64,000 nucleotides of DNA from Bdellovibrionota bacterium (GTDB lineage Bacteria; Bdellovibrionota_C; UBA2361; JAAYZI01). Below are positions 1,168-54,609 of the stretch, in pieces. The stretch's first letter is position 1, and each line of letters opens with the position of its first letter. The position numbers were made by a program, and so were the translations under genes. The stretch spans positions 448,001-512,000 of the forward strand of contig JBMNIF010000002.1 in the NCBI GenBank assembly GCA_050950765.1. Reading direction: 5' to 3'. The notes under the pieces were generated by a model. That model was given only the letters and a program-made list of their open reading frames with translations. It made no database searches and had not been told where the DNA came from.

Positions 1168-1964
1168 CTGGTGCCACCCTTCAGCAGACCCCCCCCCCCT
1201 TTAAAGTGGGTGGCACCAGTTTTTTAACCCCCGTGTAGCCGATCCGTTTTCCCGTTGCAGCCCGTTCAATCGTCCCTAACGGGTGGCACCATTTTAACCT
1301 CCGTCCAGATCTAGCTAATTCTGTCTTTAATATCAGCCCGCTCGATCGTCCCTAAAGGGTGGCACTTTTTACCTCCGTAGAAACCTAGCCGATCCGTTTT
1401 CCCATTGCAGCCCGCTCAATCGTCCCTAACGGGTGGCACCAAATTTTTGACCAGTCGCTAAGCCGTCAAAGCGACAAAAAAGAAGGGTGGCACCAGAGCC
1501 TAACCAACCCAAAAACGACAAAAATGAACGACAAAAATGAAGGGTGGCACCAAAACTGCCAAATTCTAAGCTTTTGCTAATATATTGATATTATTAGATG
1601 TTATAATTTTAGAGTCTTTTAGCACTAGTGGGTGGCACCAAATTTTTAACCCCCACCTTAAGCTGAAGGGTGGCACCAAATTTTTAACCTCCGTCCAGAT
1701 CTAGCTAATTCTGTCTTCAGTATCAGCCCGTTCTCCCGTTTCAGCCCGTTCAATCGTCCCTAAAGGGTGGCACCAAAACTGCCAAATTCTAAGCTTTTGC
1801 TAATATCTTGATATTATTAGATGTTATAATTTTAGAGTCTTTTAGCACTAGTGGGTGGCACCAAATTTTTAACCCCCACCTTAAGCTGAAGGGTGGCACC
1901 AGTTTTTTAACCTCCGTGCAGATCTAGCTAGTTCGCTCTTTAGTATCAGCCCGTCCGATCGTCC
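1168..1964. repeat. Mosaic array of a dispersed ~75-80 bp repeat with GGGTGGCACC core
   Basis: Core at 1208, 1281, 1357, 1431, 1485, 1542, 1630, 1668, 1765, 1853, 1891 and inverted at 1170; near-exact 223-bp-offset duplication (1542 vs 1765). Confidence 0.95.
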
Positions 1965-2567
1965 TTAGCGGATAACGCTATGTTCATCTTCCTTAACAAA
2001 AACCTTCAGATCTAAAACACGGTCTCCTACCCTTAGCCTTTCCGCTACACCTATGCCCTTTACGACCTGCCCGAATACAACATACTGCCCATCCATATGC
2101 GGAGCTCTACCGAGAATAATTCTAAACTGACTGCCGTGAGACCTTCTGGAGTGATCAAAATCAAGGTCGTTAGGCTTTCGCACCATTGAAAGCGCACCTA
2201 AGTCATGCTTACGATTATTAAATTCCGCTGGAAGGGTATAACCTGGACCAGAATTAGCCTTCACTCCTGAAGCACCTGTTTGAATCGCTAAATTGGGCAC
2301 GTATTTATGAAACTTTAAATTTTTGTAAAAACCTTTATCCGCTAGATACTTAAGATTTGCCACGTGCCAAGGCGCCTCCTCCGGATAAAGCCTAAAATAG
2401 ACCTCCCCCTTCTCTGTATAAAGGATGGCACTACGAATCTTTAACAACTCCTGTTTGGGCGGTAAAGAAAAAGGTGGGGTATCAAGTGCAAATAATGGCA
2501 CACAATTAAGGAGTAAGAACATCAAAACTATTAACGCGAAGTATTTGTTGTGGCGAGTCGTCTGCAT
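1965..2567 (-). CDS. Cyclophilin-type peptidyl-prolyl isomerase, exported
   Basis: LYPEEAPWHVANL, GFYKNLKFH, GALSM, GSQF and HMDGQYVVFGQV motifs; signal peptide. Confidence 0.9.
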   Translation of the reverse strand: MQTTRHNKYFALIVLMFLLLNCVPLFALDTPPFSLPPKQELLKIRSAILYTEKGEVYFRLYPEEAPWHVANLKYLADKGFYKNLKFHKYVPNLAIQTGASGVKANSGPGYTLPAEFNNRKHDLGALSMVRKPNDLDFDHSRRSHGSQFRIILGRAPHMDGQYVVFGQVVKGIGVAERLRVGDRVLDLKVFVKEDEHSVIR

Positions 2568-2757
2568 TTTGTAGTTAACTCTATCTTGTTTAACGCAAAA
2601 TTAAGTTCGGCTTTTTATGCACCGAATATCAGATCGTGGCTGTTGTTAAGAACTAATCGCTAGTATAATTAAGTGATTACACTATTGGAAGTACCATATT
2701 TAAAGGCTATTGTCACTTACACCGTGACACTTATGCCACATTTATCAATATCGGCGT

Positions 2758-5588: not shown

Positions 5589-5673
5589 CAAATTTTTTAC
5601 CTCCGTTAAGATCTAGCTGATTCGTTTTGCAGTTGCAGCCCGTTCAGTTGTCCCTGAAGGGTGGCACCAAATT
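5589..5673 (+). repeat. Single copy of the GGGTGGCACC-core element bounded by CAAATT direct repeats
   Basis: CAAATT at 5589 and 5668 (79 bp apart); body matches units at 1218-1440. Confidence 0.9.
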
Positions 5674-5714: not shown

Positions 5715-6047
5715 ATGGATTTTAAAGTTAGAGAGATCGTTGTTTTAGTTGATGATAATGGCAAATGTCCATATAGAGAATGGAGAAATAACATTCGAGA
5801 TACATCATTAGGTGCAGCAATCGATGCTAGATTAGCTAGAGTTAGGAACGGAAACTTTGGAGATCATAAATCAGTTGGTGCTGGTGTGTATGAACTTAGA
5901 ATCCCAAAAGGATCTGGTCTTAGAATTTATTACGCATTAGAAGGTGATGTTATTGTAGTATTACTTGCTGGTGGTGATAAAAAAAGTCAAAGCAAAGATA
6001 TTATCCTAGCAAAAAAACTTTGGGAGGATTATCAGAATGAAACTTGA
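5715..6047 (+). CDS. Type II TA toxin, RelE/HigB-like addiction module killer family
   Basis: GNFGDHKSVGAGVYELRI, GLRIYY and LLAGGDKKSQSKDI signature; toxin-first order. Confidence 0.92.
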   Translation: MDFKVREIVVLVDDNGKCPYREWRNNIRDTSLGAAIDARLARVRNGNFGDHKSVGAGVYELRIPKGSGLRIYYALEGDVIVVLLAGGDKKSQSKDIILAKKLWEDYQNET

Positions 6048-6327
6048 AAGTTATGAGAATGAAATTAAAGAAAGACTAAAAGATCCTGACTATGCCGTTG
6101 AATATCTAACAGATGTGTTAGCTAATGAATCACAAGAAACGTTCTTAATTGCATTAAAAGATGTAATTGATGCAAGGGGTGTTCAGATATCAAAACTATC
6201 TGAAGAATCTGGTGTCACACGCCAAGCCCTATATCACTTACTTTCAGATAAAGGTAATCCAACATTGACAACTTTTGTCTCTATTCTTAAAAGCTTGGGG
6301 TTTACTTTACAGATTAAAGCAGCTTAA
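6037..6327 (+). CDS. Type II TA antitoxin, HTH addiction module antidote (HigA-like)
   Basis: ISKLSEESGVTRQALYHLLSDKGNPTLTTFVSILKSLG HTH; overlaps the toxin stop. Confidence 0.92.
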   Translation: MKLESYENEIKERLKDPDYAVEYLTDVLANESQETFLIALKDVIDARGVQISKLSEESGVTRQALYHLLSDKGNPTLTTFVSILKSLGFTLQIKAA

Positions 6328-6848
6328 CGTTGTAAGTATTTACAAAAAGATCCCACACTACTAAAGGGCAGCATCAAATTTTTAATCACCAAGCCCTATA
6401 TCACTTACTTTCGGATAAAGGTAATCCAACATTGACCTGTTGCAGATCTGCCCTTCCGTGACGACTGCACGGGCTGAAACTGAAAAAAAGATCAGTCAGA
6501 TTTCTACGGAGGTTAAAAATTTGTGTCTGTTCTTAAAAGTTTGGGGTTCACTTTACAGATTAAAGCAGCTTAACGTTGTCCGCTCTTACTGTTGGGTAGC
6601 ACCAAATTTTTAACCACTAAGCCCTATATCACTTACTTTCGGATAAAGGTAATCCAACATTGACCTGTTGCAGATCTGCCCTTCCGTGACGGCTGGAGGG
6701 GCTGAAACTGAAAAACGGAACAGTCAGATTTCTACGGAGGTTAAAAATTTGTGTCTGTTCTTAAAAGCTTGGGGTTTACTTTACAGATCAAAGCAGCTTA
6801 ACGTTGTCCGCTCTTACTGTTGGGTAGCACCAAATTTTTAACCCCAAA
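6328..6848. repeat. Copy of the ABC-F 3' end followed by two partial copies of the antitoxin 3' end, each interrupted by the dispersed element
   Basis: 6328-6376 matches 7219-7267; AAGCCCTATATC at 6391 and 6619 (228-bp period); inverted element at 6437-6522 and 6665-6750. Confidence 0.92.
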
Positions 6849-7218
6849 ATGAAACTTGAAAGTTATGAGAATAAAATTAAAGAAAGACTAAAAGATCCTG
6901 ACTATGCCGTTGAATATCTAACAGATGTGTTAGCTAATGAATCACAAGAAACGTTCTTAATTGCATTAAAAGATGTAATTGATGCAAGGGGTGTTCAGAT
7001 ATCAAAACTATCTGAAGAATCTGGTGTCACACGCCAAGCCCTATATCACTTACTTTCGGATAAAAGTAATCCAACATTAACCTGTTGCAGATCTGCCCTT
7101 CCGTGACGGTTGCACGGGCTGAAACTGAAAAACGGATCGGCTAGATTTCTACGGAGGTTAAAAATTTGTGTCTGTTCTTAAAAGCTTGGGGTTCACTTTA
7201 CAGATCAAAGCAGCTTAA
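6849..7218 (+). pseudogene. Second antitoxin copy split by an ~86-bp insertion
   Basis: Near-identical to 6037-6327; insertion at about 7082-7167 ends the ORF at 7106 with CCRSALP*. Confidence 0.85.
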
Positions 7219-7251: not shown

Positions 7252-9048
7252 CTAAAGGGCAGCATCAGCCAACTCTTCCCATCTAGCATAAAGCCTTTCG
7301 ACCTCTTTCTTTGCCCTCTCCCAATCCTGAGTGGCTTGCAGAGCTGTTTCTGCATTACTCATCTGTTGCGGATCGTTAATTATCTCTTGATACTTCTGCA
7401 AAGTTTCTTCAGCAAGTAAGATCGCTTCTTCCATACCATCCAACTCGCGCTGCTCCATATAAGTCAACTTCTTTCTATCACTCTTTACGGGAGCATCTTT
7501 TTTCTTATCTATCTCTGATCTAGGTTTATCTGTTTTTAAGGGTGTACTTAGAGCGCCCTCCCACTGGGCATAATCAGCATAGGTTAAAACTTTCCCATTA
7601 TTTTGAATATCGATCCCGATAAAAGTATCACAAACTCGGTCTATTAAATAACGATCATGCGTAACCAATACCACAGCACCCGCAAACTCTTTTAAACTCT
7701 GCTCTAAAGATTCCATAGCCGGAATATCTAGATCGTTAGTCGGTTCATCCAGTAGTAACACATCCGCCGGTGTTAACATTAACTGCGCAATAGCTAGCCT
7801 CGCTTGCTCACCACCAGAAAGCTCTTTAACTTTCAGATCGATCTGATCTGCTCTAAATTGAAAACGGGCTGCCCAACCGTACAGATGAATAGACTGCCCA
7901 TTAAAAACCACACTATCACCGTGACTACATAAAGCACGACGCACGCTCCATTCCGGATCTAAGTTGGATCTATTCTGTTTAAAGGTTGCTATCTTTAGAT
8001 CAGGAGCGTGGATAACTGAACCGCCACTCGGTTGCAACTCTTTAGCAAGAACCTTTAATATCGTAGTTTTCCCACTGCCGTTCGGCCCTAACACTCCGAG
8101 ACGTGAAGTAGGAGAGATTATCAGATTCAATCCTTTAAAAACCTCTTTATCTTTGAAACGTTTTGCAGCACCTTTAACTTCTATCAACTTCTTTGTCTTA
8201 CGTTCAGATGCTGAAAATGAGATATCTGTCGAAGACTCCCTTAAGCGTTCTGAAGTTGCTTCAAGTTTATCCATCAGATCATAAGCTTGATCCGTTCTGT
8301 ACTTAGCTCGAGTCCCACGTGCTTTAATCCCTTGACGCAACCACTCCGTTTCACGGCGCACCTTATTGGCAAGCACCTCTTTTTCACGCATTTGCGCATC
8401 TAAAAAGAGCTCTCTTTGTTCAAGAAAACGTCGATAATCTCCATCAACTATCAGATACCCTTTCGGATAAGCGCGGTTTATTTCAAGAATTCTTTGGGTG
8501 GTGCGTTGCAAAAACCACCTATCGTGTGTAATTGCGATCCAAGCAAAAGAAGCAGATCGAAGTGTCGTCTCAAGCCAAAGAATACCTTCTAGATCAAGGT
8601 GATTAGTCGGCTCATCTAAAAAAAGCACCTCCGGAGATTGTACCAATGCACACGCCAAAGCTAAACGCTTTTTCATACCACCAGAAAGATCTGCTACCCT
8701 ACCTTCCGTTAAGCAGGCTTGTCTGCCAATAATAGAAACTAACTTATTGCGCTCTTCTTCTGAAAGTTTAGAACTTTTAGCGCTCTGCTCTAAGGTTGAA
8801 ATGACCTCTGCATCTTCAGGGAAAGAAGGGCTCTGATCTACAAAAGCAAGTGAGAGATCTTTCTTCTGTGCAACTACTCCCTCGTCAGGATCCTGCCTCT
8901 TACCCAAGATAGAAAGTAGGGTCGATTTACCGCAGCCGTTACGCCCAATAACACCGAGCTTCTCACCTTCGTTAATTGTTAAGGTGAGTCCTTGAAAAAG
9001 CGGATCCCCTGTAAAAGTTTTACTAATATTTGAGCACGAAATAAGCAT
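7252..9048 (-). CDS. uup: ABC-F family ATPase, Uup-like
   Basis: Two ABC domains (GRNGCGKS, LSGG, LDEPTNHLD; GPNGSGKT, LDEPTNDLD), no TM segments, KKLTYMEQRE and YARWEEL C-terminal domain. Confidence 0.88.
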   Translation of the reverse strand: MLISCSNISKTFTGDPLFQGLTLTINEGEKLGVIGRNGCGKSTLLSILGKRQDPDEGVVAQKKDLSLAFVDQSPSFPEDAEVISTLEQSAKSSKLSEEERNKLVSIIGRQACLTEGRVADLSGGMKKRLALACALVQSPEVLFLDEPTNHLDLEGILWLETTLRSASFAWIAITHDRWFLQRTTQRILEINRAYPKGYLIVDGDYRRFLEQRELFLDAQMREKEVLANKVRRETEWLRQGIKARGTRAKYRTDQAYDLMDKLEATSERLRESSTDISFSASERKTKKLIEVKGAAKRFKDKEVFKGLNLIISPTSRLGVLGPNGSGKTTILKVLAKELQPSGGSVIHAPDLKIATFKQNRSNLDPEWSVRRALCSHGDSVVFNGQSIHLYGWAARFQFRADQIDLKVKELSGGEQARLAIAQLMLTPADVLLLDEPTNDLDIPAMESLEQSLKEFAGAVVLVTHDRYLIDRVCDTFIGIDIQNNGKVLTYADYAQWEGALSTPLKTDKPRSEIDKKKDAPVKSDRKKLTYMEQRELDGMEEAILLAEETLQKYQEIINDPQQMSNAETALQATQDWERAKKEVERLYARWEELADAAL

Positions 9049-9315
9049 ATCAATTCTTTATAGTTAAGAGATACAAGGAGTGATCTTACTTCACGCTTCT
9101 ATATAAAATCAATCAACTTAAAAAAGGCACCATCAGAACACACTTTAAAAGATACAAAAGGCATAAAGAACACTTAAAATATTTCAGATGACGATGCTGG
9201 CGCAAAGTGAAACAAGGGGCTAGGATATATCTTCTCATCTTTTAAATTAAATCTGTACCGCATCCATAAGTTGTTGCATAGGAACACCTAACCTATTTTA
9301 CACTCAGGTTACGTA

Positions 9316-9537
9316 ATGACTGATGATTGTTTAGATAAGAGGACTCGAGCAGAAGATATCTTACTCGGCTCAATCGGACTGGATGAAGACGCTCATATCG
9401 TTAACGTCTCCAGAACTGCAGACGGCTATCAAGGAATCGCCGTATGGAGTGACGGAGAAAAATTTAATTTTGAATCAGACGGTGGACTGACTCCTTTAGA
9501 AGAGTGGGCATTAAATATCTTTCTTGCAGGTAAGTAA
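9316..9537 (+). CDS. Small acidic hypothetical protein
   Basis: 73-aa ATG ORF with protein-like composition filling an intergenic gap. Confidence 0.65.
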   Translation: MTDDCLDKRTRAEDILLGSIGLDEDAHIVNVSRTADGYQGIAVWSDGEKFNFESDGGLTPLEEWALNIFLAGK

Positions 9538-9643
9538 CTATTATTTATAATCTCTCAATATTATAAAATTACCACCTTCATCTTCTATTTTTGAGAGGCG
9601 AGGTAGTGCTGTGTTCTATACAGCACTTAGGATGCTACATACT

Positions 9644-9674
9644 AAAAAGGACACCTACCTTGTGTAGGTGTCCT
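9644..9674 (-). terminator. Intrinsic terminator after fliS
   Basis: AGGACACCTAC/GTAGGTGTCCT stem with a U-tract on the minus strand. Confidence 0.8.
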
Positions 9675-9705
9675 AAAAAAATATAGATCATGGAGAAGAA
9701 ACTTG

Positions 9706-10149
9706 TTAGAGAGAGATCTGAACTCTCTTAATCTCATCGTGGTCGATCTTAGGCTGTTGCATAATACCTGTTTTCTTTTCGCCTTCAATGACCTCTTTAT
9801 ATGCGCCGTAAATAATATCAAGCAAGTTAATAACTTTACTGATGCGCGCGCCATCACGGTGTAAGTTTGCTTCCGTCAGATAGAACAACATAAAATCATA
9901 AAGTCTATCTAGATCACGTGCAATCGTACCACCCTTTTCAAAATCGATGGTATTCATCAACTCCGCAATAATGGCTTGCCCTTTACTGAGGAATCGACAG
10001 AACTTCTGAATGTCTTTTTCCTCGAGACCAGCTTTGGATTGTTTGAGGAATTTAATCGCTCCCTCGTACATCATCAATAACAAACGACCGCGATCGGTAG
10101 TTGTAATTTGAACGTTTTTATATGCTGAATGAGCATCTTTCCCGTACAT
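9706..10149 (-). CDS. fliS: Flagellin export chaperone FliS
   Basis: AYKNVQITT, LLLMMYEGAIKFL, KGQAIIAEL and IARDLDRLYDFM; ATG 10149 with GAGGTG SD. Confidence 0.93.
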   Translation of the reverse strand: MYGKDAHSAYKNVQITTTDRGRLLLMMYEGAIKFLKQSKAGLEEKDIQKFCRFLSKGQAIIAELMNTIDFEKGGTIARDLDRLYDFMLFYLTEANLHRDGARISKVINLLDIIYGAYKEVIEGEKKTGIMQQPKIDHDEIKRVQISL

Positions 10150-10212
10150 GGACACCTCTTTTAAAAAAATCAGACTTCTTTTAAACGGATAACTTCCTAA
10201 GTCCTAAAATCT

Positions 10213-10240
10213 TTATCGACCTCAATATAAAAGAGCTTGA
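10213..10240 (-). promoter_or_regulatory. Putative sigma28 promoter of fliS
   Basis: TCAAGCTC-N12-GTCGATAA on the minus strand. Confidence 0.65.
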
Positions 10241-10313
10241 GCAGAAAAATTAACCTAGCTAACAAGCTATATAAACTACTGTTTTTTCGCTCAAAAGTTC
10301 CATAAAATACTGT

Positions 10314-11111
10314 CTAACGTAGCTCTTGTGCCCGTATCTGTGCCTGTTTAATCCCTGCTTTTAAAGCCTCAAAAACACCTTTACTATCAAACACTTTAAT
10401 AGCAGCTTCAGTTGTACCTCCTTTTGATGTTACGCGTTTACGTAACTCTTCAACGGACACATCTGCACCTTCCCAAAGCTCCACTGCACCCTTTATCGTT
10501 TGAGCAGCCATTAAATGTGCATCATCTTCAGAGAATCCGAGTTCAGCAGCAGCCTTTAAAAAAGCTTCGATAAAATAAAATACATAGGCAGGTCCACTAC
10601 CAGAGAGTGCCGTAACACCATCCAGCAACTCCTCTTTTGCAACACGCAAACACCTTCCACCAGCAGAAAGGATCGCTTCCACCACCTCAAGGTCTTTTTC
10701 AGAGACAGCCGAAGATGGAAAGTACGCCGTCATGCCAACCCCGCTCTGAAAAGGTGTATTAGGCATACACCGCACGATCTTTTGATGTCCACCCAGTGCA
10801 GTTGAAATACTTTCAATCTGCATCCCAGCCATAATCGAAAGGAGTAATGTTTCAGGAGTAATCTTTGATGCCAGATCCGCACAAGCTTTCTGCATATCTT
10901 GCGGCTTTACAGCTAAAAGAAGAGGACCCCTTTTAATTTGCGGAACATCTTCTACAACACGACAAGCGAGCTTCTTAATTAAATCACTACGTCGTGCTGC
11001 ATCACGCTCAACTATTACAAGATTCTCCGCATCTACTAATTTTTTTTCGAGACAGAGGGAAGCAAAGGCAAACCCCATATTTCCACCACCGATAACAACA
11101 AACTCTTGCAT
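10314..11111 (-). CDS. proC: Pyrroline-5-carboxylate reductase
   Basis: GGGNMG, AVKPQ, RCMPNTP, TALSGSGPAY and VTSKGGTT motifs. Confidence 0.96.
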   Translation of the reverse strand: MQEFVVIGGGNMGFAFASLCLEKKLVDAENLVIVERDAARRSDLIKKLACRVVEDVPQIKRGPLLLAVKPQDMQKACADLASKITPETLLLSIMAGMQIESISTALGGHQKIVRCMPNTPFQSGVGMTAYFPSSAVSEKDLEVVEAILSAGGRCLRVAKEELLDGVTALSGSGPAYVFYFIEAFLKAAAELGFSEDDAHLMAAQTIKGAVELWEGADVSVEELRKRVTSKGGTTEAAIKVFDSKGVFEALKAGIKQAQIRAQELR

Positions 11112-11172
11112 GGCGCACCCCTAAATAAAAAACACCCCCCATTAACTCTAAAAGTGCTCGTTCCAAAAGCTC

Positions 11173-11475
11173 CTACTTCTTTCCGACACAAGAACACTTC
11201 TCAACTTCTACATCTGCACCTTTTTTAGGAGGCTCTAAGTTTAAAAAAAGACACATCTGATCCAGCAAGCGATCGTAATCTCTAAGTTCTCCCATGTTTA
11301 AACGATACTCATTAAGAATCCTTATCTGAAACTCTTCTTGCCACTCATCCCATGCAGCTTTAGAGACCTTTTTATAGATCGCCTCGCCCAGTTTTCCTGG
11401 AAATGGAGCTTTTTCCAAGCCTGCCATCTCTTTACCGTATTTTACACAATGAACCATTTTTTCCTCACTAGCCAT
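11173..11475 (-). CDS. Fe(II)-trafficking / oxidative damage protection protein (YggX family)
   Basis: VHCVKYGKEMAGLEKAPFPGKLGEAIY, SKAAWDEW and LNEYRLN. Confidence 0.88.
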   Translation of the reverse strand: MASEEKMVHCVKYGKEMAGLEKAPFPGKLGEAIYKKVSKAAWDEWQEEFQIRILNEYRLNMGELRDYDRLLDQMCLFLNLEPPKKGADVEVEKCSCVGKK

Positions 11476-11690
11476 CTTTACCCCTTATAAATACACAACA
11501 TCACAGCATCTATACCTCTACCGTTTCCAATAAACCTTTTTTTCCTCACTAGCCATCTTTACCCCTTATAAATACACAGCATCGCAGCATCTATACCTCT
11601 ACCGTTTCCAATAAACCTTTTTTTCCTCACTAGCCATCTTTACCCCTCATAAATACACAGCATCACAGCATTTATACAGATACCGTTTTT
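11452..11690. repeat. Three 81-bp tandem copies of the YggX-like gene start and leader
   Basis: CCTCACTAGCCAT at 11463, 11544, 11625. Confidence 0.95.
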
Positions 11691-11872
11691 CTAACAAATT
11701 CATAAGAAAATAGCATCTTATAATAATGCACCCCCCCTTAAAGAATAACCATTCGGTTTCTACGCCTTAAAAAGCAACCTTTTTATTTATTACCCAATAA
11801 CGGTACAGCATGTTTTCTTTACGCTTATTAGGGAGATCTTTTAAGCATAAACGGTTTTTTAAAGAGGTTGTT

Positions 11873-12511
11873 ATGACGATATCAGAAAAGAGCGATTCTC
11901 AATTATTAGACGGAATAAAACGGAGAGATTCAGCAGCTTTTGAAGAGATTGTTAATCGCTATCAGGAAAAGGTCTTTCGCCTCGCTCTTCATATCACTAA
12001 GCACCAAGAAGATGCTGAAGATGTTATACAAGATACCTTTTTAAAAGTTTTTAGTAAGATCTATACCTTTAGAAATGAATCATCCTTCTCCAGTTGGCTC
12101 TTTCGCATTGCAGCCAATTCTGCCCTAATGAAGTTGCGCTCACGTAACAGACGACTTAAATCAGAACTAACTAACAGTACCGCCACAGGTGTAGAAACAG
12201 CTATCGCAATATGTAACGATTATGATCTTAATTACGCTTCAAGCTCTTACGAAATACGTAACGTTCTCCAGAAAGCCACAGACTCTCTTCCGACCGATTA
12301 TAAAATAATCTTTATTTTACGAGATATGGATAATCTCTCTAATCAAGAGATAAGTGAAGCTATGAACATAACTGTCGCCTCAGTAAAATCAAAGTTGCAC
12401 CGTGCCAGATTACGACTCCGTAAAAAGCTGCATAACTTTTATGAGGATTATAAGTCTCCAGAAATAATATTTTACAAAGAGCCGTTCACAGAACAGGCTT
12501 GCAGAAATTAA
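11873..12511 (+). CDS. ECF-family RNA polymerase sigma factor
   Basis: DAEDVIQDTFLKVF, FSSWLFRIAAN and SVKSKLHRARLRLR; ATG 11873 preceded by GAGGT. Confidence 0.92.
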   Translation: MTISEKSDSQLLDGIKRRDSAAFEEIVNRYQEKVFRLALHITKHQEDAEDVIQDTFLKVFSKIYTFRNESSFSSWLFRIAANSALMKLRSRNRRLKSELTNSTATGVETAIAICNDYDLNYASSSYEIRNVLQKATDSLPTDYKIIFILRDMDNLSNQEISEAMNITVASVKSKLHRARLRLRKKLHNFYEDYKSPEIIFYKEPFTEQACRN

Positions 12512-12576
12512 AGTAATAGCTTCGTTATAAGAAGAAGTTTTTTTAAAGCATTTTTAATGTTGGTGTTACCCTTTAG

Positions 12577-12820
12577 CCCAAACTTTCCCCCCTTACGTAT
12601 GTTAAGAGGTGGTATCTCCCATTAATAAGACGTAACTCCTTTTTTTTATCTCGATATTTTGTTGCCTAATTGAGGGGATTTTTGCTTTCTTTACATACCT
12701 AAATACGTATGTCAAAACAGCGAAAAAGTTACCCCCTTTTATCGCTAATTTTTAAAAGATTTCTATCAGTTATAACAATATTGCTACTTTATAGTTACGT
12801 AAATTACAAAAAAGTTTGGG
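12577..12820 (-). mobile_element. 244-bp MITE, internal-deletion derivative of the IS at 51031-52595
   Basis: CCCAAACTTT terminal inverted repeats; 6-bp target duplication CTTTAG (12571-12576, 12821-12826); reverse complement aligns to IS 51031-51245 plus 52565-52595. Confidence 0.93.
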
Positions 12821-12834
12821 CTTTAGCTAAAAGC

Positions 12835-12902
12835 TTTTAAAAAAGCATCTCGACTAAAAAAGAAATTTTTAATTTTGAGGTTTTAAAAAAGTATCTCGAC
12901 TA
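12835..12902. repeat. Two-copy direct repeat, 46-bp period
   Basis: TTTTAAAAAAGYATCTCGACTA at 12835 and 12881. Confidence 0.8.
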
Positions 12903-12942
12903 GAGAGTAAGGCTCTTGTAATAAGAATAATAAAAAAAATTA

Positions 12943-13866: not shown

Positions 13867-13964
13867 AACTACTAAAATAGCATCAAAATTTAGTTGTCTC
13901 AAGTTACTTCATAAGGTGGTCTAATATACTGTAATCAGTCGACCCCCTACCTCAGAACTGTCCC

Positions 13965-14220
13965 AAAAGATAAAAAAGGCTCCCTCCAAATGCCCTTGTC
14001 CATTCCTAAAAATAAAAAAAGACCGTCTTCAAATGCCCTTATCCGTTAAAGGTTCCGACTTACATAATTTCCAACTTACATATTTTATTTATTAAAAGAA
14101 GTTATTGTAGACAAAATTTAATTTTTAAGGTCAAAAGAGCTCCACTCATCAAGACTTTAAAGCGCGTCCTTTTTTATCTGATTTTTTTATCTGATTTTTT
14201 TATCTGGCTTTTTATCCGAA
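13965..14220. repeat. 43-bp two-copy repeat and 13-bp TTTTTTATCTGA microrepeats
   Basis: CAAATGCCCTT at 13987 and 14030; TTTTTTATCYG four times at 14170-14220. Confidence 0.7.
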
Positions 14221-14235
14221 AAGTTTAGGGAAATT

Positions 14236-14578
14236 TACTTACTTTTTAGTAGAGGCAACTTAGCGGTGTTCCGCTATGACCGCCCTAACTTGGAGGGGGG
14301 AAAGCTGTTTTCTCCCTTACCCTTTTTAGTAGAGGCGATTTAGCAGCGTTCCGCTACGACCGCCCTAACTTGGAGGGGGAAAAACCTCTTACTCCCTTCG
14401 CTTTTTTAATATTACGGATCCCACCCAAATAAGAATTTGAATGGGATCCGCTAAGGGGAAAAAAGTTACTTACTTCCCTTTACCCTTTTTAGTAGAGGCA
14501 ACTTAGCAGTGTTCCGCTACGACCGCCCTAACTTGGAGGGAAAAAAGCTGCTTACTTCCCTTTACCTTTTTTAGTAGA
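14236..14578. repeat. Four 80-83 bp units each reiterating the recA 3' end
   Basis: AGTAGA anchor at 14248, 14328, (14408 degenerate), 14491, 14573; the last lies inside recA. Confidence 0.9.
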
Positions 14579-15673: not shown

Positions 15674-15797
15674 GCTCTTTAACTCCTAATAAATGATATT
15701 ATCCATAAAATTTTTTATTCTTAAGGTCAGATTTGTAATCTCTAAACCTCCTCCTCATACGTTAAAATCACGTTTTCTCCACTATATATCACCAACT

Positions 15798-16667: not shown

Positions 16668-16711
16668 AAGTTGCAGTTGTTGGTTGTGGGGGTTTTCTAT
16701 GGGAGGTTTTT

Positions 16712-22975: not shown

Positions 22976-22982
22976 GGGGAAG

Positions 22983-25674: not shown

Positions 25675-25806
25675 GGATAGATTAGATGTCCGCCAAACTT
25701 CTAATAAGTTTACAGAGCCCTTTTATATTTTTCAAGGAGTAGCCCCTTTTCTCCGCATAAATACTTTAATCCTCTCCACAGAACCTTTTTACCTTAAGAA
25801 AAAAAA

Positions 25807-26010
25807 CACTAGCTATTCCTTTTTCCTTCAGAAAAAAACACCTGTGCTGCCTCAATTAGTTTTTTACCCTCCCCTCAAAAAAAAGCACTAGCTATTCCCT
25901 TTTTCCTTCAGAAAAAAAACACCTGTGCTAACTCCATTAACTTTTTTACCCTCCCTCCAAAAAAAGACCACTAGCTATTCCTTTTTCCTTCAGAAAAAAA
26001 CACCTGCGCT
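25807..26010. repeat. Three copies (79 and 83 bp period) of the cca 3' end
   Basis: CACTAGCTATTCC at 25807, 25886, 25969; the last overlaps the stop codon. Confidence 0.93.
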
Positions 26011-27329
26011 AACTTTATTAACTTGCTTTTTTCATTTCTTTCAGGATCATCCAAGACTAGCTCTTTAAGATAATTTAAGATCTTACCAACCTCAGGCCCA
26101 GCTTTAACCCCCATAGCGAGAATATCATCCCCTGAGACAGCTAGCTTTCCATAAGCAGGCTCTTCCAACCTCTTTTTTTCCTCTTCTAAAATTTCCAGAA
26201 AAGCGTGTTTTTGCGATAAAAACTCCTCTTGCCCCATAGCGGGAGAGATATCTGCCTCCTTAAAAAGTAACCAGTTATCCAACTCACTACCGAGATCGCG
26301 CATAATCCGACGCACACCTGCTGCACCGCAGGTAAAAGACCTCATATGTTGCGCCACCAACAGAGAAACCCTCCGAATATCTTCATTCGAATAACGTAAA
26401 CGCCGCATAACGGTATTACAGATCTCCACACTTTTTGCTTCATGACAGTAAAAATGTCGTCGCCCCCCATCATCGATAGAGAGTGTTTGCGTCTTTCCGA
26501 TATCATGAAAGAGCGCTGCCAATCTTAAGATCAGATCGCGCGGAGACCTTTCAATCACGTCGAGGGTATGCTCAAAAACATCATGAATATGAAACTCATT
26601 CTGCTCAAAACCGATAGCAGGCATTATCTCCGGCAAAACCACCTCAAGTAACCCCGTTTCATATAAAAGATGAAACGCCGCCCTCGCATATTCTGAAACA
26701 AGTATCTTTGAAAACTCTTCTCGAACCCGCTCTACACTAACAGAAGAGATTAAAGCCCGAGACCTCTTTGCCGCCTCTACCGTTTCTTCCGCAACACTTC
26801 TTCCCGCTGCCGCACCAAAACGCACCATGCGCAACAACCTTAACGGATCTTCTTTAAAACGTTCTTCAGCATCCCCTACACCACGAAGTATCTTTGAACG
26901 GAGGTCTGAAAGTCCGTCATAAGGATCAAGCACCCTCCGTGTTGCAATATTAAAAGCTAGCGCATTGATGGTAAAATCTCGTGCAGAGAGATCCTCTGCA
27001 ATATCTTCAGAAAACCCAAGCACACCTCGTGCTACCCGCTTCCTAAAAGTCGTTATCTCTACGGACTCCGTTCCAACAAGAGCCGTTACCGTTCCATGCA
27101 AAAGACCTGTCTCAATAACTCGCACTCCGCAACTTTTAAGCCTCTCGCCCACCTCATCTGGTGTTAAACGTGTAGCTAGATCAATATCTCCGTCTCTCTC
27201 ACCACAAGCCACCTCCCTAATAGTTCCGCCAACTATATGCAGTGCGGCGTCTTCCCCTAACGCCGTATAAAGGGTGGCGATAGGCTCCCTTGTAGTAAGT
27301 TCACTAAGATACTTTTCCAGATCTTCCAT
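25971..27329 (-). CDS. cca: tRNA nucleotidyltransferase with HD domain
   Basis: VGGTIRE, DIDLAT, EITTFR, RDFTINA, EDPLRLLR and LFHDIGK. Confidence 0.9.
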   Translation of the reverse strand: MEDLEKYLSELTTREPIATLYTALGEDAALHIVGGTIREVACGERDGDIDLATRLTPDEVGERLKSCGVRVIETGLLHGTVTALVGTESVEITTFRKRVARGVLGFSEDIAEDLSARDFTINALAFNIATRRVLDPYDGLSDLRSKILRGVGDAEERFKEDPLRLLRMVRFGAAAGRSVAEETVEAAKRSRALISSVSVERVREEFSKILVSEYARAAFHLLYETGLLEVVLPEIMPAIGFEQNEFHIHDVFEHTLDVIERSPRDLILRLAALFHDIGKTQTLSIDDGGRRHFYCHEAKSVEICNTVMRRLRYSNEDIRRVSLLVAQHMRSFTCGAAGVRRIMRDLGSELDNWLLFKEADISPAMGQEEFLSQKHAFLEILEEEKKRLEEPAYGKLAVSGDDILAMGVKAGPEVGKILNYLKELVLDDPERNEKSKLIKLAQVFFSEGKRNS

Positions 27330-30883: not shown

Positions 30884-31010
30884 CCTAACTTCCCAAATGA
30901 GACACTTTTTTAAAAGCTTTTAGCTCAAAAACTTCCCAACCACACACTAAATAAAAATCCTCACCCTAACTTCCCAACTGAGACACTTTTTTAAAAAGCT
31001 TCCAGCTGAA
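30884..31010. repeat. Two-copy 81-bp repeat at the duplication junction
   Basis: CCTAACTTCCCAAMTGAGACACTTTTTTAAAA at 30884 and 30965. Confidence 0.85.
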
Positions 31011-41678: not shown

Positions 41679-41732
41679 AAACCAATTCGGAGATTGTACT
41701 TATTAAAATATAGAGAAGTCAAGAGATTGAAC

Positions 41733-41981
41733 TTTTTTCATCACAAATTTTCAGCATTTTCTAGTTTTCAAGCGCCACTTTTTTCATCACAAATTTTTAG
41801 CAATATTTATTCTTGAAGTGCCACTTTTTCATCACAAATTTTTAGCATTTTCTAGTTTTTAAGCGCCGTTTTTTTCTTCACAAATTTTCAGCAATATTTA
41901 TTCTTAAAGTGCCGCTTTCTTCTTCACAAATTTTCAGCAATATCTATTCTTAAAATGCCGCTTCCTTCACCATAAATTTTT
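41733..41981. repeat. ~46-bp tandem repeat, 5-6 copies, two variants
   Basis: TCACAAATTTT at 41741, 41787, 41832, 41878, 41924. Confidence 0.92.
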
Positions 41982-45048: not shown

Positions 45049-45201
45049 TCTACTTTTGAGAGAGTAAGTTCCTTATAATTTTTTAGTGGTATTTAACTTT
45101 AGAGAGGAAAAAACTATTGCTGAAGAGAAACTCTACCTTTGAGACAGCGCATCCCTTATAATTTTTTAGTGGCATTTAACTTTAGAGAGGAAAAAACTAT
45201 T
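45049..45201. repeat. Two-copy 83-bp repeat including the neighbouring stop codon
   Basis: CCTTATAATTTTTTAGTGGYATTTAACTTTAGAGAGGAAAAAACTATT at 45071 and 45154. Confidence 0.92.
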
Positions 45202-47627: not shown

Positions 47628-49709
47628 ATGGTCAACGATACTAAAGAAACACAAAATGAACTTAACCCCCAACTCTCTGAAGAAACATCAAGTGTTAATG
47701 CGGATACGTCTGACATTCCTGATTTCCCTGATATTCATGATGAAGAAAGTAATTTTGAAGATACAGTCCAGATGCCACAAGAGTTGGTGGATGCTTTAGC
47801 AAAAAGTATTGAAAGCACCCCTGATACCCCCTCTTCTTTAACGCCACAAAAAAAGGAAGGACACCCTCTTAGAACTATTATATTACTTATCGTTTTATTA
47901 GGAGTGGGAGGCGGTGCAGTTTGGGCTTATCAAAACAAAGAAGACCTCTCGACATATACCAACGTAGCTATAACAAAAACAACAACTCTTGTTAAAACGA
48001 TCATAGATAAGATCAAAGCTATAACCTCCTCTGAAGAACAGTCAGAAGAAAGTGGTAATGAAGAAGGGTTTTCTGAAGAGTTTCCAGATCTCTCACTATC
48101 AGACGAGAGTACTTCTAAAAGCGACTCTCTCGATACTCCAGAAAGCACCCCTCAACAAAACGTTGCTACTAAAGAGGGATCGGAAGTTGATGACTCTCTT
48201 GCACTAGATCTCCTTGAAGAGGGCGCTATTACTAAAGAGGAGATGGCTGCACACACCACTTTAGGGAGCATTGCTGACGAGGTAAACGAATTTGAAAATT
48301 TATTAAATGATGCAGAAGACACCCTAAATATCCCTCAAGCAAGAGATAATGCAGATATCAAAAATGATACTCCTAGTGACGACCTTAAAAAAATCGAAGA
48401 AGAGGAGAAGGCATTAGGTGCTTCCGATCAAGTTGAGGCACCACTTGAAGGAGGTAATACGGAAGATATCTCTAAAGAATTAGTAGCTGAATCTCTGGAA
48501 GAGGATATTTTAAAAGAGACTTCAGAGCTTGAAGTAGATCAGAGAGAGGAGGCGTCTCAAGAATTAGTAGTTGATTTTACGGAAGAGGATGTTTTAAAAG
48601 AAACTGTCTCTCTGGATAAACCTCTTAATAAAGAAGAACAAGTTATAAAAGATCTGATAGTAACCTACGGCATTGAAGAGAAAGAGGCTCTTTCATTAAC
48701 AAAAATTTTAGGAGAGATGAGTAAAGCTTTTAACCTTGAGCAAGCTTTAGTTACTGCTATCGTTTCTGCAGAGAGCTCTTTTAATGCTTCAATAGTTTCA
48801 AGTAGTGGTAAGATCGGCCTCTTACAACTAACACCGGAGACGGCTCAAATGATCAATCGGCTATCGAAATCTGCCGTTCCTGTAAACGATCTAACAGACC
48901 CGAAGAGTAACCTAACTTTAGGCTTATGGTATATAAAGTTCTTAGGCGAACAATTTCAAGGTGACCTCTGGAAAACTCTTGCCGCTTATGAGATGGGGGT
49001 AACGGAATTCGAAAAAGTACAGGGATCAAAGAGGAACTTACCAACATTCACTAAACGTTACCTTAACAACATTAAACTTATCTATAAAAAACTCACTCAA
49101 AAAGGAGAAGTTGCTGCCGCAGCCGCCTTTAAAAACTCTCTTTCCAAGAGCGTTGTTACGGAAAGTATACCATTAGCTGGCGTAAAAAGTGACAGTGTAA
49201 AAACTTCAACACCTAAAAGAATTGTTTCGGCGAAATCACTTCCTGAGATTATCGCTTCAACTGTTGTTCCTCCTACTATGCGAGATCAGATGGCAACTTT
49301 AGTTGAAGAGGAGGCAAAAGCATTTAATTTAGATCCTTTATTTGTAGCAGCTGTTATTATGTCAGAAAGCTCTTTTAACTCTGGAATCGTTGCTCCTTCT
49401 GAAAAAGTTGGACTCTTACAGGTAGATCCGAATAGAGGAGAAGAGATCGCTAAGTTAACCGGTAAGAGTTGGCGGGGTAAAGAGGCGCTTTTAGAAGCGG
49501 AGTATAACCTTAACTTCGGTCTGGCGTACTTAAACTATTCTCTAAAATTATACCCAAATAATTTAAGAAAGGCGCTACTCACATATAACTTAGGAAGAGA
49601 GGAGGCGGAAAAAGAGATGGTAAAAACCTCTCCACTTGCTGAACGTTATATACAAAACATTCAAACTTACATGAAAGGTTGGGGGGTAAAAAACCCTTAT
49701 CTTGAATAG
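47628..49709 (+). CDS. Membrane-anchored protein with two lytic transglycosylase (SLT) domains
   Basis: TM helix near aa 85-101, long acidic linker, AESSFN..GLLQL..AAY and SESSFN..GLLQV..TYNLG. Confidence 0.88.
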   Translation: MVNDTKETQNELNPQLSEETSSVNADTSDIPDFPDIHDEESNFEDTVQMPQELVDALAKSIESTPDTPSSLTPQKKEGHPLRTIILLIVLLGVGGGAVWAYQNKEDLSTYTNVAITKTTTLVKTIIDKIKAITSSEEQSEESGNEEGFSEEFPDLSLSDESTSKSDSLDTPESTPQQNVATKEGSEVDDSLALDLLEEGAITKEEMAAHTTLGSIADEVNEFENLLNDAEDTLNIPQARDNADIKNDTPSDDLKKIEEEEKALGASDQVEAPLEGGNTEDISKELVAESLEEDILKETSELEVDQREEASQELVVDFTEEDVLKETVSLDKPLNKEEQVIKDLIVTYGIEEKEALSLTKILGEMSKAFNLEQALVTAIVSAESSFNASIVSSSGKIGLLQLTPETAQMINRLSKSAVPVNDLTDPKSNLTLGLWYIKFLGEQFQGDLWKTLAAYEMGVTEFEKVQGSKRNLPTFTKRYLNNIKLIYKKLTQKGEVAAAAAFKNSLSKSVVTESIPLAGVKSDSVKTSTPKRIVSAKSLPEIIASTVVPPTMRDQMATLVEEEAKAFNLDPLFVAAVIMSESSFNSGIVAPSEKVGLLQVDPNRGEEIAKLTGKSWRGKEALLEAEYNLNFGLAYLNYSLKLYPNNLRKALLTYNLGREEAEKEMVKTSPLAERYIQNIQTYMKGWGVKNPYLE

Positions 49710-50019
49710 TTTTTCTTACAGTAAGATTGACTTACAGGAGACTTAAGAAATTTAAACTTATAAGGTAAAAAACCTTATCTTGAATAGTTTTTCTTGCAGT
49801 AAGATTGACTTACAGGAAAACTAAGGATTTTAAACTTACAAGGTAAAAACCTTATCTTGAATAGTTTTTCTTACAGTAAGATTGACTTACAAGGATGCTT
49901 AAGAAATTTAAACTTATAAGGTAAAAACCTTATCTTGAATAGTTTTTCTTGCAGTAAGATTGACTTACAGGAGACTTAAGAAATTTAAACTTATAAGGTA
50001 AAAAACCTTACCTTGAATA
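49685..50019. repeat. 77-78 bp tandem array starting inside the SLT gene 3' end
   Basis: CTTAYCTTGAATA at 49696, 49774, 49851, 49929, 50007. Confidence 0.96.
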
Positions 50020-50033
50020 AAGTTTTTTTACCT

Positions 50034-51030: not shown

Positions 51031-52595
51031 CCCAAACTTTTCTGTGATTTACGTAACAATAAAGTAACATATTGTTATAACCTATAGAAATTTTTTAAAA
51101 ATTAACAAAAAAGGGGGTTGACTTTTTTGTTGTTTTGACATACGTATTTAGGTATGGGAAAGAAAGCAAAAATACACCCTGATTGGGCAACAAAATATCG
51201 AGAGAAAGGAAAAGAGGTACGTCTTATCAATGGGAGATATTACCTATATAGCTACAGCTATAAGTATGACCCTGAGAGGAAAAGGAGCGTGAAAGTTACT
51301 GGTAAATTACTTGGACGAATTACAGAAGAGGACGGTTTTATACCAAGTGAGAAGAGAAGCCTTGTACCTGCTGTGAATATTAAGTGCAGAGAGTATGGTT
51401 TATCTCAATTTATCCTCAATCAAAAAACAATTATTGAAAGACTTCGGTGTTATTTTCCAGATAAGTGGAAGGCTATTTTGCTGATGTCATACAGCAGGAT
51501 CAAACATTGCTCTCCTATTAAACGCATGAATGATGATTTTGAAAACAGTATGTTGAGTGAAAAACTTAATTTTCTTCTTAATAAGAAAGCTATTCCGAAT
51601 ATTTTGCAATCGATTGGGAAAGATGAATTTGCTCGTTCTGAATATATGAAGAGTTTTATTCATGGAAAAGATTTTTTGTTAATTGATTCTACATTTCTTA
51701 GAACATCTATGAGAAAGTCGAGTCTTGCTAAAGGAGGATATAATAAAGACCATTTTTGGGAAACGCAGGCGAGTTTGCTTTATATTTACTCTAAAAAATT
51801 GCAACAACCAGTCTATTATAGGTTATTGGCTGGGAATATAAGAGATGTAAAAGCTCTATCTTTAACTATCCAAGAATCAGAAATTGGTGATGCTACTATT
51901 ATTGCAGATAAGGGTTTCTATTCAGAGTCTAACGTTAAAGATCTTATAGAGAATAAACTTAGCTTTGTTATTCCATTGCGTAGAAATAGCTCTCTTATAG
52001 ACTATGATGGAATAGAAACAAGCAGGAACGTTATTGAATATAATAAAACGTACTTAAGATATAAAAAATATAAGATTGGGAATGGATTTATATATCTGTT
52101 TAGAGACCCGTTTTTAGCAGGTGAAGAGGAAAATAACTTAGTTTCATTAACAATATCTCATCCAGAAAAATACAATTTAACAGATGTTGATTTAAAAAAA
52201 GTGAGGCTAGGAACTGTTGCATTCTTTTCAAATTTGGACTCATCCGCAGAAGAAATATACACGTTATACAAAATGCGACTATCTATTGAACAATCTTTTG
52301 ATACGTTAAAAACTGTTTTAAAAGCAGATGCTTCATATATGAGTGATGATGATAAATTTCAGGGATGGATGTTCGTGAATCACATAGCAATACAGTGGAG
52401 CTATGAAATATTAAAAACAATAAAAAAACATAAACTTTCGACTTCAATATCATTAGAAGATGCTATCAGAAGGTTATCTGAAATTAAAAAAGTTAGGCTT
52501 GGGGACTCTTGGTATTTAGCCGAGCAAACTAAAGCAGAGCTAAAAATAGCCGAACTGTTACTTACTTAACATACGTAAAAAGGGGAAAGTTTGGG
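51031..52595 (+). mobile_element. Complete insertion sequence, IS1634/IS4-like
   Basis: TIRs CCCAAACTTT...AAAGTTTGGG; 6-bp target duplication TTTAAG (51025-51030, 52596-52601); single DDE transposase. Confidence 0.93.
51154..52569 (+). CDS. DDE transposase
   Basis: LIDST, IADKGFYS and YKMRLSIEQSFDTLK (YREK motif). Confidence 0.95.
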   Translation: MGKKAKIHPDWATKYREKGKEVRLINGRYYLYSYSYKYDPERKRSVKVTGKLLGRITEEDGFIPSEKRSLVPAVNIKCREYGLSQFILNQKTIIERLRCYFPDKWKAILLMSYSRIKHCSPIKRMNDDFENSMLSEKLNFLLNKKAIPNILQSIGKDEFARSEYMKSFIHGKDFLLIDSTFLRTSMRKSSLAKGGYNKDHFWETQASLLYIYSKKLQQPVYYRLLAGNIRDVKALSLTIQESEIGDATIIADKGFYSESNVKDLIENKLSFVIPLRRNSSLIDYDGIETSRNVIEYNKTYLRYKKYKIGNGFIYLFRDPFLAGEEENNLVSLTISHPEKYNLTDVDLKKVRLGTVAFFSNLDSSAEEIYTLYKMRLSIEQSFDTLKTVLKADASYMSDDDKFQGWMFVNHIAIQWSYEILKTIKKHKLSTSISLEDAIRRLSEIKKVRLGDSWYLAEQTKAELKIAELLLT

Positions 52596-53067: not shown

Positions 53068-54228
53068 TTATTTAGCGGACTTACTTACCACTCCGTACTT
53101 ATCCAAAGTCTCCTGACTGATCTGTCCTATATGGATGTTATTATCCACAACAAAAACTGGAGTCCCCTGAATTTGTAAAGCTATCCCAGCATCAATATCT
53201 TTCTTTAGCTCTGCCTCACTCTCTTTAGACTCCATACAGTGCTTTAAACTTTTTACATTTAACTTTAAAGAGGTTGCGATCTTTTCAATACGCTCCTGCA
53301 CGGTGCCATCATAAGCATTAAAATCATATAAAAGATCATTCATCTCCCAGAAGTGACTCTGTTTACCAGCACAGATAGCAGCCTTAGCCATCTCACAGGC
53401 ACCATCATGAAAACTTCCTTGAACGAGAGGATTACAAGCACGATCCAACGGAAAGTGTCGGTGAATCAGGGTGATAGTATCCGGATTATCTTTAATTACT
53501 GTACGTAGATTTTGATGACCTCTCTTACAATGTGAGCACATATAATCGCTAAACTCTTCGACTACCATCTTGCCATCTTCAACCCCAATCCACGGCAACC
53601 CCTGCGCAGTATAACCGTATGTCCCGATCTCTGCAGAGTGTTTCTTGTTCCAATAGTTAGGAAAACCAACAATCATTAAGGTAGTAATTACAATAAATAT
53701 AGCGCTCAAAGAGCTCTCCTGCCCCAAGAAAGAAAACGGTGCAGAAAAAGCCTTTTTTAACGGTATCTTATGCTTCCACCACTCAAGCGCCACTACAATT
53801 AAAAGGATTAGATTAATTCCATACGTTATCGAACAGTAAAGGCAGAACGAACAGATCACGCAGTACGAAATAAGCGCCAAAAAAAGGCTGACTAAAACTG
53901 CAGCACAACAACACAACGCTAAAATAATAAAAGAGGTCTCTGATTTTTTACGATAACAGACAATAAGTAGCGAAAGCATAAAGAGATAACCGATCACCCC
54001 CCAACCCGCTACGGGCACCCCTAGCACCACCGAATACTGACTCTCCGCAACGGTCTCGCAATTAAAAGAGTCACTCATAGCACAAAAGCTTTGAAAGGAC
54101 GGATTGGTATGAACTTGATGATGAAGCCTTGCTAAAGCGATCGCAAAAGCTAAACCCGCCAAACAGAGGCACGCTATTAAAACGGTACTAACGGTACTTA
54201 AAGTAAAAGATTGTGATTTCTGTTGCAT
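53068..54228 (-). CDS. VKOR-DsbA fusion (disulfide bond formation)
   Basis: SFCAMSDSFNCETVAESQYS, CLYC; thioredoxin fold CSHC, HFPLD and GTP. Confidence 0.92.
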   Translation of the reverse strand: MQQKSQSFTLSTVSTVLIACLCLAGLAFAIALARLHHQVHTNPSFQSFCAMSDSFNCETVAESQYSVVLGVPVAGWGVIGYLFMLSLLIVCYRKKSETSFIILALCCCAAVLVSLFLALISYCVICSFCLYCSITYGINLILLIVVALEWWKHKIPLKKAFSAPFSFLGQESSLSAIFIVITTLMIVGFPNYWNKKHSAEIGTYGYTAQGLPWIGVEDGKMVVEEFSDYMCSHCKRGHQNLRTVIKDNPDTITLIHRHFPLDRACNPLVQGSFHDGACEMAKAAICAGKQSHFWEMNDLLYDFNAYDGTVQERIEKIATSLKLNVKSLKHCMESKESEAELKKDIDAGIALQIQGTPVFVVDNNIHIGQISQETLDKYGVVSKSAK

Positions 54229-54388
54229 TGTATTCTCTAATCTAGAAAAAAACCTAATTCTGCTAAGACTTATAGCACTTAAGTATACTGTCTTAAAACA
54301 GAAAAAATTAAAACTTGGCGATCTTATTACATATTTAGTGCTACCAAACCCTAACGGAAAAACAATTCCTGACTTCCAAGCCTAAACA

Positions 54389-54609
54389 TTTTTTACCTCC
54401 GTAGAAACCTAGCCGATTCGTTTTTCAGTATCAGCCCGTTCAAGCGTCCTTAGAGAGTGGCTCCTTTTACCTCCGTAGAAACCTAGCCGATTCGTTTTTT
54501 AGTATCAGCCCGTTCAGTTGTCCTTAAAGAGTTTTTACCTCCGTTAAGATCTAGCCGATTCGCTTTTTAGTATCAGCCCGTTCTAATGTCTCTGAAGGGT
54601 GGCTCCTTT
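54389..54609 (+). repeat. Three tandem copies of the dispersed GGGTGGCACC-core element
   Basis: ACCTCCGT at 54395, 54469, 54537; body matches 1366-1440 and 5589-5673. Confidence 0.93.

Follow-up and report, generated by a model that had tools for sequence, protein, structure and literature searches.

Tandem repeats of constant size and variable sequence have been described in bacteria with unit sizes of 20-21 and 52 nt, the 52-nt size only in Firmicutes. They form multi-locus families of at least four copies, and their describers find no obvious explanation for them (PMC8161180). We report here on tandem arrays of mostly unrelated local DNA, with unit lengths near 44, 62 and 80 bp, in the genome of a Bdellovibrionota bacterium (assembly GCA_050950765.1). 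The starting point was a stretch of 64,000 nucleotides (contig JBMNIF010000002.1, positions 448,001 to 512,000), called the window below, whose first-pass annotation listed repeats of 77-84 and 43-46 bp at gene boundaries and attributed them to a chromosome-wide, length-measuring duplication. All the loci that it named are present where it placed them. The genome analysed comprises 2.64 Mb in 5 contigs (C1 to C5) and is 94% complete; the window is C2:448001-512000, and positions given without a contig are those of the window.

The fixed-period duplication pattern is real, genome-wide and lineage-specific. Three methods gave a period histogram that is peaked rather than flat, with sharp maxima at 43-45 and 79-83 bp, as the claim of chromosome-wide fixed periods implied. 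With a genome-wide array score cut of 18, and after removal of a dispersed repeat family and low-complexity DNA, 169 arrays that are not fully coding were retained; the array at the end of the gene for the CCA-adding enzyme (cca) was filtered out with the dispersed family and is absent from the genome-wide counts. Periods of 41-48 bp (n = 42, mean 44.3, standard deviation 1.5) or 76-85 bp (n = 72, mean 80.4, standard deviation 1.7) account for 114 of the 169, so that the proposed second class near 43-46 bp exists as well; shuffled intergenic DNA gave no array (two shuffles of 1129 intergenic regions, 444 kb). These two groups are termed the 44 and 80 classes. There is also a minor class at 61-63 bp, 13 arrays having periods of 60-66 bp; two of these are CRISPR arrays with a 63-bp period, recognised by eye at C2:132192-134172. 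A CRISPR identity is ruled out for the arrays unique to one locus: whole units are copied and units differ between loci. Only one non-coding array has a period of 21 bp. The class periods form a ladder with a step near 18 nt and correspond to 4.2, 5.9 and 7.7 helical turns, that is, out of helical phase. Two arrays longer than 700 bp were set aside before work on sizes and edges, leaving 112. Among these, 99 have no homologue elsewhere in the genome at E<=1e-4, and 17 reach at least four copies, most having two to three.

Copies within an array differ by substitutions and indels, the substitutions having been seen already in the first reading, and one contig of sequencing run X4 covers window positions 12942-22348, including the array at the end of recA, with no difference and no gap. 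Both facts argue that the arrays are not assembly artefacts. The run contigs do break at the array beside the yggX-like gene, as expected for near-identical repeats, and alignment of four runs to positions 9000-28500 showed no joint or indel at arrays, these being near-identical strains compared as contigs only. RNA runs contained no more than 0.06-0.17 of the words sought. The polarity of the shared word and the gradient towards the origin described below are also not assembler behaviour, and the chance of an assembly or sequencing error behind the whole pattern is negligible.

Units of both classes share a short word, (R)GGWAAAA, with core GGWAAAA and a fuller form of about GNGAGGWAAAAAR. 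Its density is 7.8 and 8.6 per kb in units against 1.07 in control intergenic DNA, a 7-8x excess. The word occurs mostly once per unit; a second word at mid-unit is rare, which rules out 80 as a composite of 44 + 36. In its strict form it is found in at least two copies of 63 arrays, with periods of 42-46 bp in 19, 61-63 bp in 4, 77-83 bp in 37 and outside these ranges in 3 (73, 87 and 120 bp). Two leaks from the dispersed family and two duplicated loci were removed from the conservation, per-unit, bare-pair, partial-copy and edge analyses. The word ends no more than 3 nt from the array 3' end in 12/26 cases in the 44 class (P = 9e-7) and no more than 4 nt from it in 10/57 cases in the 80 class (P = 0.003). 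Outward-pointing words lie near array ends in 28/62 cases versus 4/42 for inward-pointing words (P = 9e-5), which carry the same homopolymer yet show no pile-up at the array edge. The position of the word at the edge is a tendency, not a strict rule. Many arrays are partial; eighteen of them were analysed as copies written A-B-A, in which a part A of 25-56 nt is present twice and a part B once. Counted with a looser pattern, the word is in A in 17/18 and in B in 2/18, and B is not similar to either flank (mean z 0.04 and 0.17).

Other properties of the word and of the units were surveyed. A ribosome-binding-site role was rejected, with an ATG following only 25/228 words, as was a genome-specific avoidance of the word (0.79 here versus 0.69-1.06 in relatives). 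Units show no hairpin tendency (folding z -0.61/-0.51 versus -0.63 in the control). An inverted word pair 20-40 bp wide (GGTAAAA...TTTTACC) closes several arrays, at 49997-50032 in the window and at C2:707811, C3:36215, C4:6699 and C1:237068; a perfect hairpin of the inverted-word type lies within a 75-bp array at C3:298430-298670. Similarity between neighbouring copies gave no clear growth polarity, the last pair being less alike than the first in 15 arrays and more alike in 8.

The trait sets this genome apart from its relatives. Word pairs 79-83 bp apart number 70 here, and none of 90 other genomes of the order has more than 10; pairs of an 8-base word at this spacing number 56, with a maximum of 7 across 95 further genomes of the phylum, and word pairs 42-46 bp apart 61 versus at most 11 in 57 other genomes. 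These searches detect only a GGWAAAA-type word, and most of the relatives' genomes are fragmented assemblies, which can lose repeats. When 1.29 Mb of DNA from seven relatives, the sole other genome of the family among them, was scanned without use of the word, no array of 41-48 or 76-85 bp appeared, against an expectation of about 63. This absence bears on generic microhomology-mediated tandem duplication, in which A-rich words would serve as microhomology arms for ordinary slippage or flap processing. Such duplication is presented, in the available part of one account, as the main route to tandem duplication across life (10.64898/2026.02.28.708716), and in some arrays here the word stands at both ends. 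The process gives no reason for a constant length, however, whereas none of the 169 non-coding arrays has a period of 49-59 bp although bare word pairs occur at those spacings, and MutS, RecJ, ExoVII and the Pol I 5' nuclease are present in this genome. With the empty scan of the relatives, this leaves the generic process a slim chance of being the explanation.

Array placement relative to genes was assessed with a crude open reading frame heuristic, whose start positions are unreliable. The proposed placement at gene boundaries holds in part: 48/112 arrays overlap a called start or stop codon, and stop codons are enriched for the 80 class only (32/72 versus 23-30%, P = 4e-5 to 5e-3), but gene ends overall are not (80 class 35/72 versus 44% expected, P = 0.23; 44 class 13/40 versus 28%, P = 0.34). 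Convergent intergenic regions are enriched in the 80 class (27/72 versus 279/1493, or 19%; P = 1.4e-4). Since such regions hold no promoters, the enrichment at stops and in convergent regions fits tolerance. All 15 coding arrays of the two classes are in frame, with periods that are multiples of three, and word-bearing in-frame arrays of 42, 45, 63 and 81 bp occur inside genes. The earlier suggestion that survival favours gene-sparing events is borne out by the convergent regions and the coding periods. Transcription polarity is marginal or absent (28/44 in tandem regions, P = 0.048; 14 versus 12 at overlapped stops).

Around parS (C2:620 kb) and dnaA (C2:599 kb), which mark the origin region, array density is raised 2.0-3.2x over distances of 100-400 kb. 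Twenty-four of 127 arrays lie no more than 100 kb from these markers (P = 2e-5 when scaled to intergenic regions and 0.008-0.05 when scaled to free words). Five identical parS-like 16-mers stand at C2:619707-620132, upstream of parA-parB and about 20 kb from dnaA (C2:599419), at the GC-skew minimum.

This gradient is one of the features that would suit a functional lattice, in which GGWAAAA is bound by a nucleoid or segregation protein peculiar to this lineage, which bridges or wraps sites at spacings of 44, 62 or 80 bp; duplications of all lengths would arise and the correctly spaced ones be kept, above all near the origin. A functional-site explanation was offered by Subirana and Messeguer for the 52-nt repeats (PMC8161180). 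The lattice is also consistent with the conservation of the word between copies, with the retention of both words in 17/18 A-B-A arrays, with the single word of most units and with the recA array, which holds its spacing across an unlike unit. It does not predict the polar position of the word at the array edge, and the periods are out of helical phase. Outside arrays the word is not over-represented (ratio 0.91-1.09 in coding and 0.94-1.26 in intergenic DNA) and no word lattice was detected: bare word pairs 76-86 bp apart number 2 against 6.7 expected (P = 0.03), with no excess at 41-48 bp either. Selection for spaced sites should leave such pairs, so their scarcity counts in favour of copying. 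Three Pfam searches gave no histone-fold protein above the cut-off, which rules out a histone ruler as far as a 94% complete genome allows (no match to PF00808 or PF15511, and two sub-threshold PF09123 matches in long frames), and HU/IHF proteins number 3, as in most relatives. We consider the lattice a serious but rather unlikely reading.

We privilege the hypothesis that the arrays arise by word-triggered, fixed-distance copying, a lineage-specific mutational process filtered by purifying selection, and give it an even chance of being correct. A protein would act at an ordinary word, (G)NGAGGWAAAAA-like with core GGWAAAA, and at the A run of the word, or immediately 3' of it, would produce a DNA end or a pause. 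That end would then pair again at a fixed distance of about 44, 62 or 80 nt, a reach dictated by a protein scaffold and not by the sequence. Synthesis would then copy either the whole unit, giving a tandem, or a 25-56-nt patch around the word, giving A-B-A. Copies that keep the word could be hit again, so that arrays would grow and the word be over-retained, while selection would only remove events that break genes or promoters. Such copying accounts for the polarity at the edge, for the absence of bare pairs and for the absence of genome-wide enrichment of the word. From the fixed periods we infer a length-measuring process, as the first-pass annotation did; its sequence-blind form does not stand, since a 7-8-base word marks the arrays and their edge. 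If the mutational reading is true, local duplication in bacteria has a new source that is programmed; if the lattice is, the word is a new kind of site that organises the chromosome, graded towards the origin.

Several observations weigh against copying. The word is 9-41 nt away from the 3' end in 11/17 A-B-A arrays, and total array lengths are not near whole copies, length modulo period covering the whole range (the arrays may be too old or partial); there is therefore no single clean breakpoint rule. The word is better conserved between copies than matched controls (GG 0.94 versus 0.835; A4 0.979 versus 0.886), and this conservation, like the retention of the word in A-B-A copies, is explained equally by selection. 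The strict word is missing in 36/114 arrays (16/42 and 23/75 in slightly different bins), and the 61-63 class has only 4 word-bearing arrays. Replication-strand bias is absent, with 49/86 on the leading strand (P = 0.12). A test for a Chi-type word failed: GGTAAAA ranks 8743 and GGAAAAA 12804 of 16377, with skews of 0.56-0.58, compared with rank 248 for GGAGAGG and 1455 for GGTGAGG and skews of 0.72-0.78. RecA, SSB and AddAB are ordinary and common to relatives without the trait, and the responsible enzyme was not found, in agreement with the first-pass annotation, which had named none. Metagenome and genome scans and the four near-identical runs yielded no sister strain with an empty site and no close sister loci. 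Intergenic lengths gave disagreeing answers with two controls on insertion versus overwrite.

A more specific version of the copying hypothesis, which we hold tentatively, is a sequence-triggered, ruler-guided mutator: a machine would read a 7-12-base word and copy the surrounding DNA 44, 62 or 80 nt away, each step being roughly a turn of the RecA filament, with activity highest near the origin. A step of 18 nt suits a single-strand scaffold better than a double helix. SSB has wrapping modes of 35 and 65 nt and is another candidate for the ruler. The genome encodes an intact AddAB-like pair, adjacent genes for a 915-aa PD-(D/E)XK protein and a 1074-aa UvrD-type protein. If a RecA filament were loaded from an AddAB/Chi-like end, each of its turns would span 18.5 nt (6.16 subunits x 3 nt), given the 6.16 subunits per turn and nucleotide triplets in the accessible part of a study of filament geometry (10.1101/2022.07.28.501814). 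A preference for A/G 3' of Chi is likewise described in the portion available of another work (PMC5041463). This ruler is improbable and only a lead, because the abundance and skew of the word are not those of Chi, few arrays make up the 62 class and the proteins are shared with relatives.

Other candidates were rejected. Neither a reverse transcriptase nor Ku-dependent non-homologous end joining was found in the genome. Loss of mismatch repair or exonucleases does not apply to the four proteins listed above, in a search that did not cover ExoI, MutL and DnaQ; an unusual SSB and an expansion of HU/IHF are ruled out. A scan of 19 of 34 candidate small basic proteins gave 4 ribosomal proteins, 1 weak helix-turn-helix match and 14 proteins without family, none linkable to the arrays.

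A dispersed family with an 11-bp core has to be kept apart from the unique arrays. It makes up 46/99 Tandem Repeats Finder arrays of 70-92 bp and flanks six Y1-type transposase genes; we take it to belong to the RAYT-associated REP/BIME/REPIN type. The 79-bp element on the minus strand at 5589..5672, which the annotation of the window had counted as the same phenomenon, is a single module of this transposase-linked family running from core to word. The mosaic array at 1208..1954 (unstranded; 74-79-bp module and others), whose module also carries the word, and the 74-bp array at 54391..54609 (minus strand) are further members. The description of the loci as unrelated local sequence therefore stands for the 99/112 arrays without homologue but not for these three loci, nor for the GT junction array, which has 19 matches elsewhere and is part of a second small dispersed element, and it is qualified by the shared word. 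The second element is palindromic, with about 15-19 matches, AT-rich arms and often a tRNA-like sequence nearby, and is itself caught in arrays (30870-31010 in the window; C2:125810, 127812 and 1120012, C3:590070, C1:33161, C5:60604 and 63837). At C1:408896-422976 there is a cluster of small repeats on a GGGTGTCC variant of the 11-bp core. At 12549-12821, other contigs of all four runs align with many differences and a 271-bp skip, suggesting a dispersed element; ARAGORN predicts no tRNA there.

The family invites the view that the arrays come from the six RAYT-like Y1 transposases, which in trans would cut single-stranded DNA at the word and join it at a distance of one enzyme reach; the unique arrays would then be off-target products and the 79-bp module the on-target one. 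Next to the transposase genes this module does span the 11-bp core to a word-like end (core-to-word 74-76 nt in 179 cases), 236/419 word-like ends then have a core, and a word-like motif is found in 61/73 family arrays of 70-82 bp. Unique arrays are nevertheless no closer to cores than control words (median 11.6 versus 11.0 kb), the regions richest in unique arrays hold few family arrays, and Y1_Tnp occurs in 18/20 relatives without the trait. We find the transposases quite improbable as the source; the 79-bp module may itself be a product of the copying process.

Within the window, the genes neighbouring the named arrays are as annotated (yggX-like, recA, CCA-adding enzyme and SLT). The 81-bp array at 11447..11688 (minus strand, 3.0 copies) includes the first 10 codons of the yggX-like gene and has the word once per unit, at 11458, 11539 and 11620. 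The array at the recA stop (14242..14578, plus strand, 80-83 bp) has three like units and one unlike, hairpin-bearing unit, with the word at 14378, 14457 and 14539; its third or middle unit (14402-14484) is an unrelated terminator-bearing sequence with a strong hairpin that keeps the 80-82-bp spacing and the word. The array at the stop of the CCA-adding enzyme gene (25799..26024, minus strand, 79-83 bp) carries two words per unit, at 25820, 25862, 25900, 25944 and 25982. The GT junction (30884..30996, minus strand) is an A-B-A copy of period 81 with 32 bp present twice and the word at the edge, at 30879. An 83-bp array of 1.8 copies (45049..45201, plus strand) ends at the stop at 45197, with words at 45106 and 45189, and the array at the SLT gene stop (49685..50027, plus strand, 77-78 bp, about 4.4 copies) has words at 49685, 49764, 49842, 49920 and 49997, then the inverted word. 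Four further repeats lack the strict word, and their membership is by period: a 45/46-bp array of 5.5 copies with a degenerate word between tRNA-Asn and recR (41731..41980, minus strand); a 46-bp A-B-A copy with 25 bp twice (12832..12902, unstranded) and no word; a weak 43-bp repeat whose score of 16.5 is below the cut, a doubtful member (13961..14047, unstranded); and a weak in-frame 84-bp repeat without word inside the SLT gene (48444..48605, plus strand), which may be an ordinary coding repeat.

Other features of the window were recorded. Between tRNA-Ile (27468) and tRNA-Ala (28344), a 135-bp array of 3.7 copies (27572-28291) is 99% identical with an 89-bp sub-period; the filter sorted it with the dispersed family, yet its consensus lacks the 11-bp core. 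At 5715-7106 lies a RelE/ParE-type toxin with antidote; a second antidote gene comes next, on the far side of a 228-bp duplication (6366-6847). At 28559-33085, a 661-aa flagellin-like gene is next to two tandem 683-aa genes that match nothing in NCBIfam or Pfam. A stand-alone tyrosine recombinase (22890-24020) and an IS1634-family transposase (51154-52569) show no link to arrays.

Several known systems share traits with these arrays. Like microhomology-mediated tandem duplication, they turn single-copy local DNA into a tandem repeat that can expand, but that account, in its available part, gives no fixed unit length and no shared motif (10.64898/2026.02.28.708716). Several non-coding satellite families of Leptospira interrogans share one size, 46 nt, near the 44 class; what is accessible of their description presents them as transposed families, whereas the arrays here are local and single-locus (PMC6749651). 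The Chi hotspots of RecBCD and AddAB are, as far as the available text goes, G-rich words with a cut a few bases 3', favoured by an A/G-rich flank and left at the 3' end for RecA (PMC5041463), a context that the array word with its putative DNA end resembles. Unlike Chi, the array word is not among the top over-represented leading-strand words and the arrays have no strand bias. We know of no fixed-length duplication at Chi. RAYT-associated REP arrays account for the 11-bp-core family, while the unique arrays neither contain the core nor lie close to it.

The closest likeness is to the Subirana-Messeguer repeats, with which the arrays share many non-coding arrays of one size, unrelated sequences, species-specific short words and an unexplained function. 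They differ in size (about 44, 62 and 80 against 20-21 and 52 nt), in being out of helical phase and in being single-locus copies of local DNA that seldom reach four copies, not multi-locus families. They have one shared polar edge word, and neither A-B-A copies nor an origin gradient is described in PMC8161180. Our literature search found no report of 44/62/80-nt classes or edge-anchored words; it did not cover a 2020 J Bacteriol survey and supplements, which may bear on this. This genome shows constant-size, free-sequence repeats at birth: single-locus, mostly in two to three copies, of three discrete lengths and marked at a defined edge by a defined word. The puzzle becomes a set of sharp questions: the site at which the DNA end forms, the protein that determines the length, and whether mutation or selection fixes the pattern. 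A ruler-guided mutator, if true, would give the first mechanistic handle on the origin of such bacterial repeats, at the two-copy stage. The pattern is thus partly anticipated in print; new with respect to the described repeats are the lengths, the single-locus youth, the edge-anchored word, the patch copies and the origin gradient.

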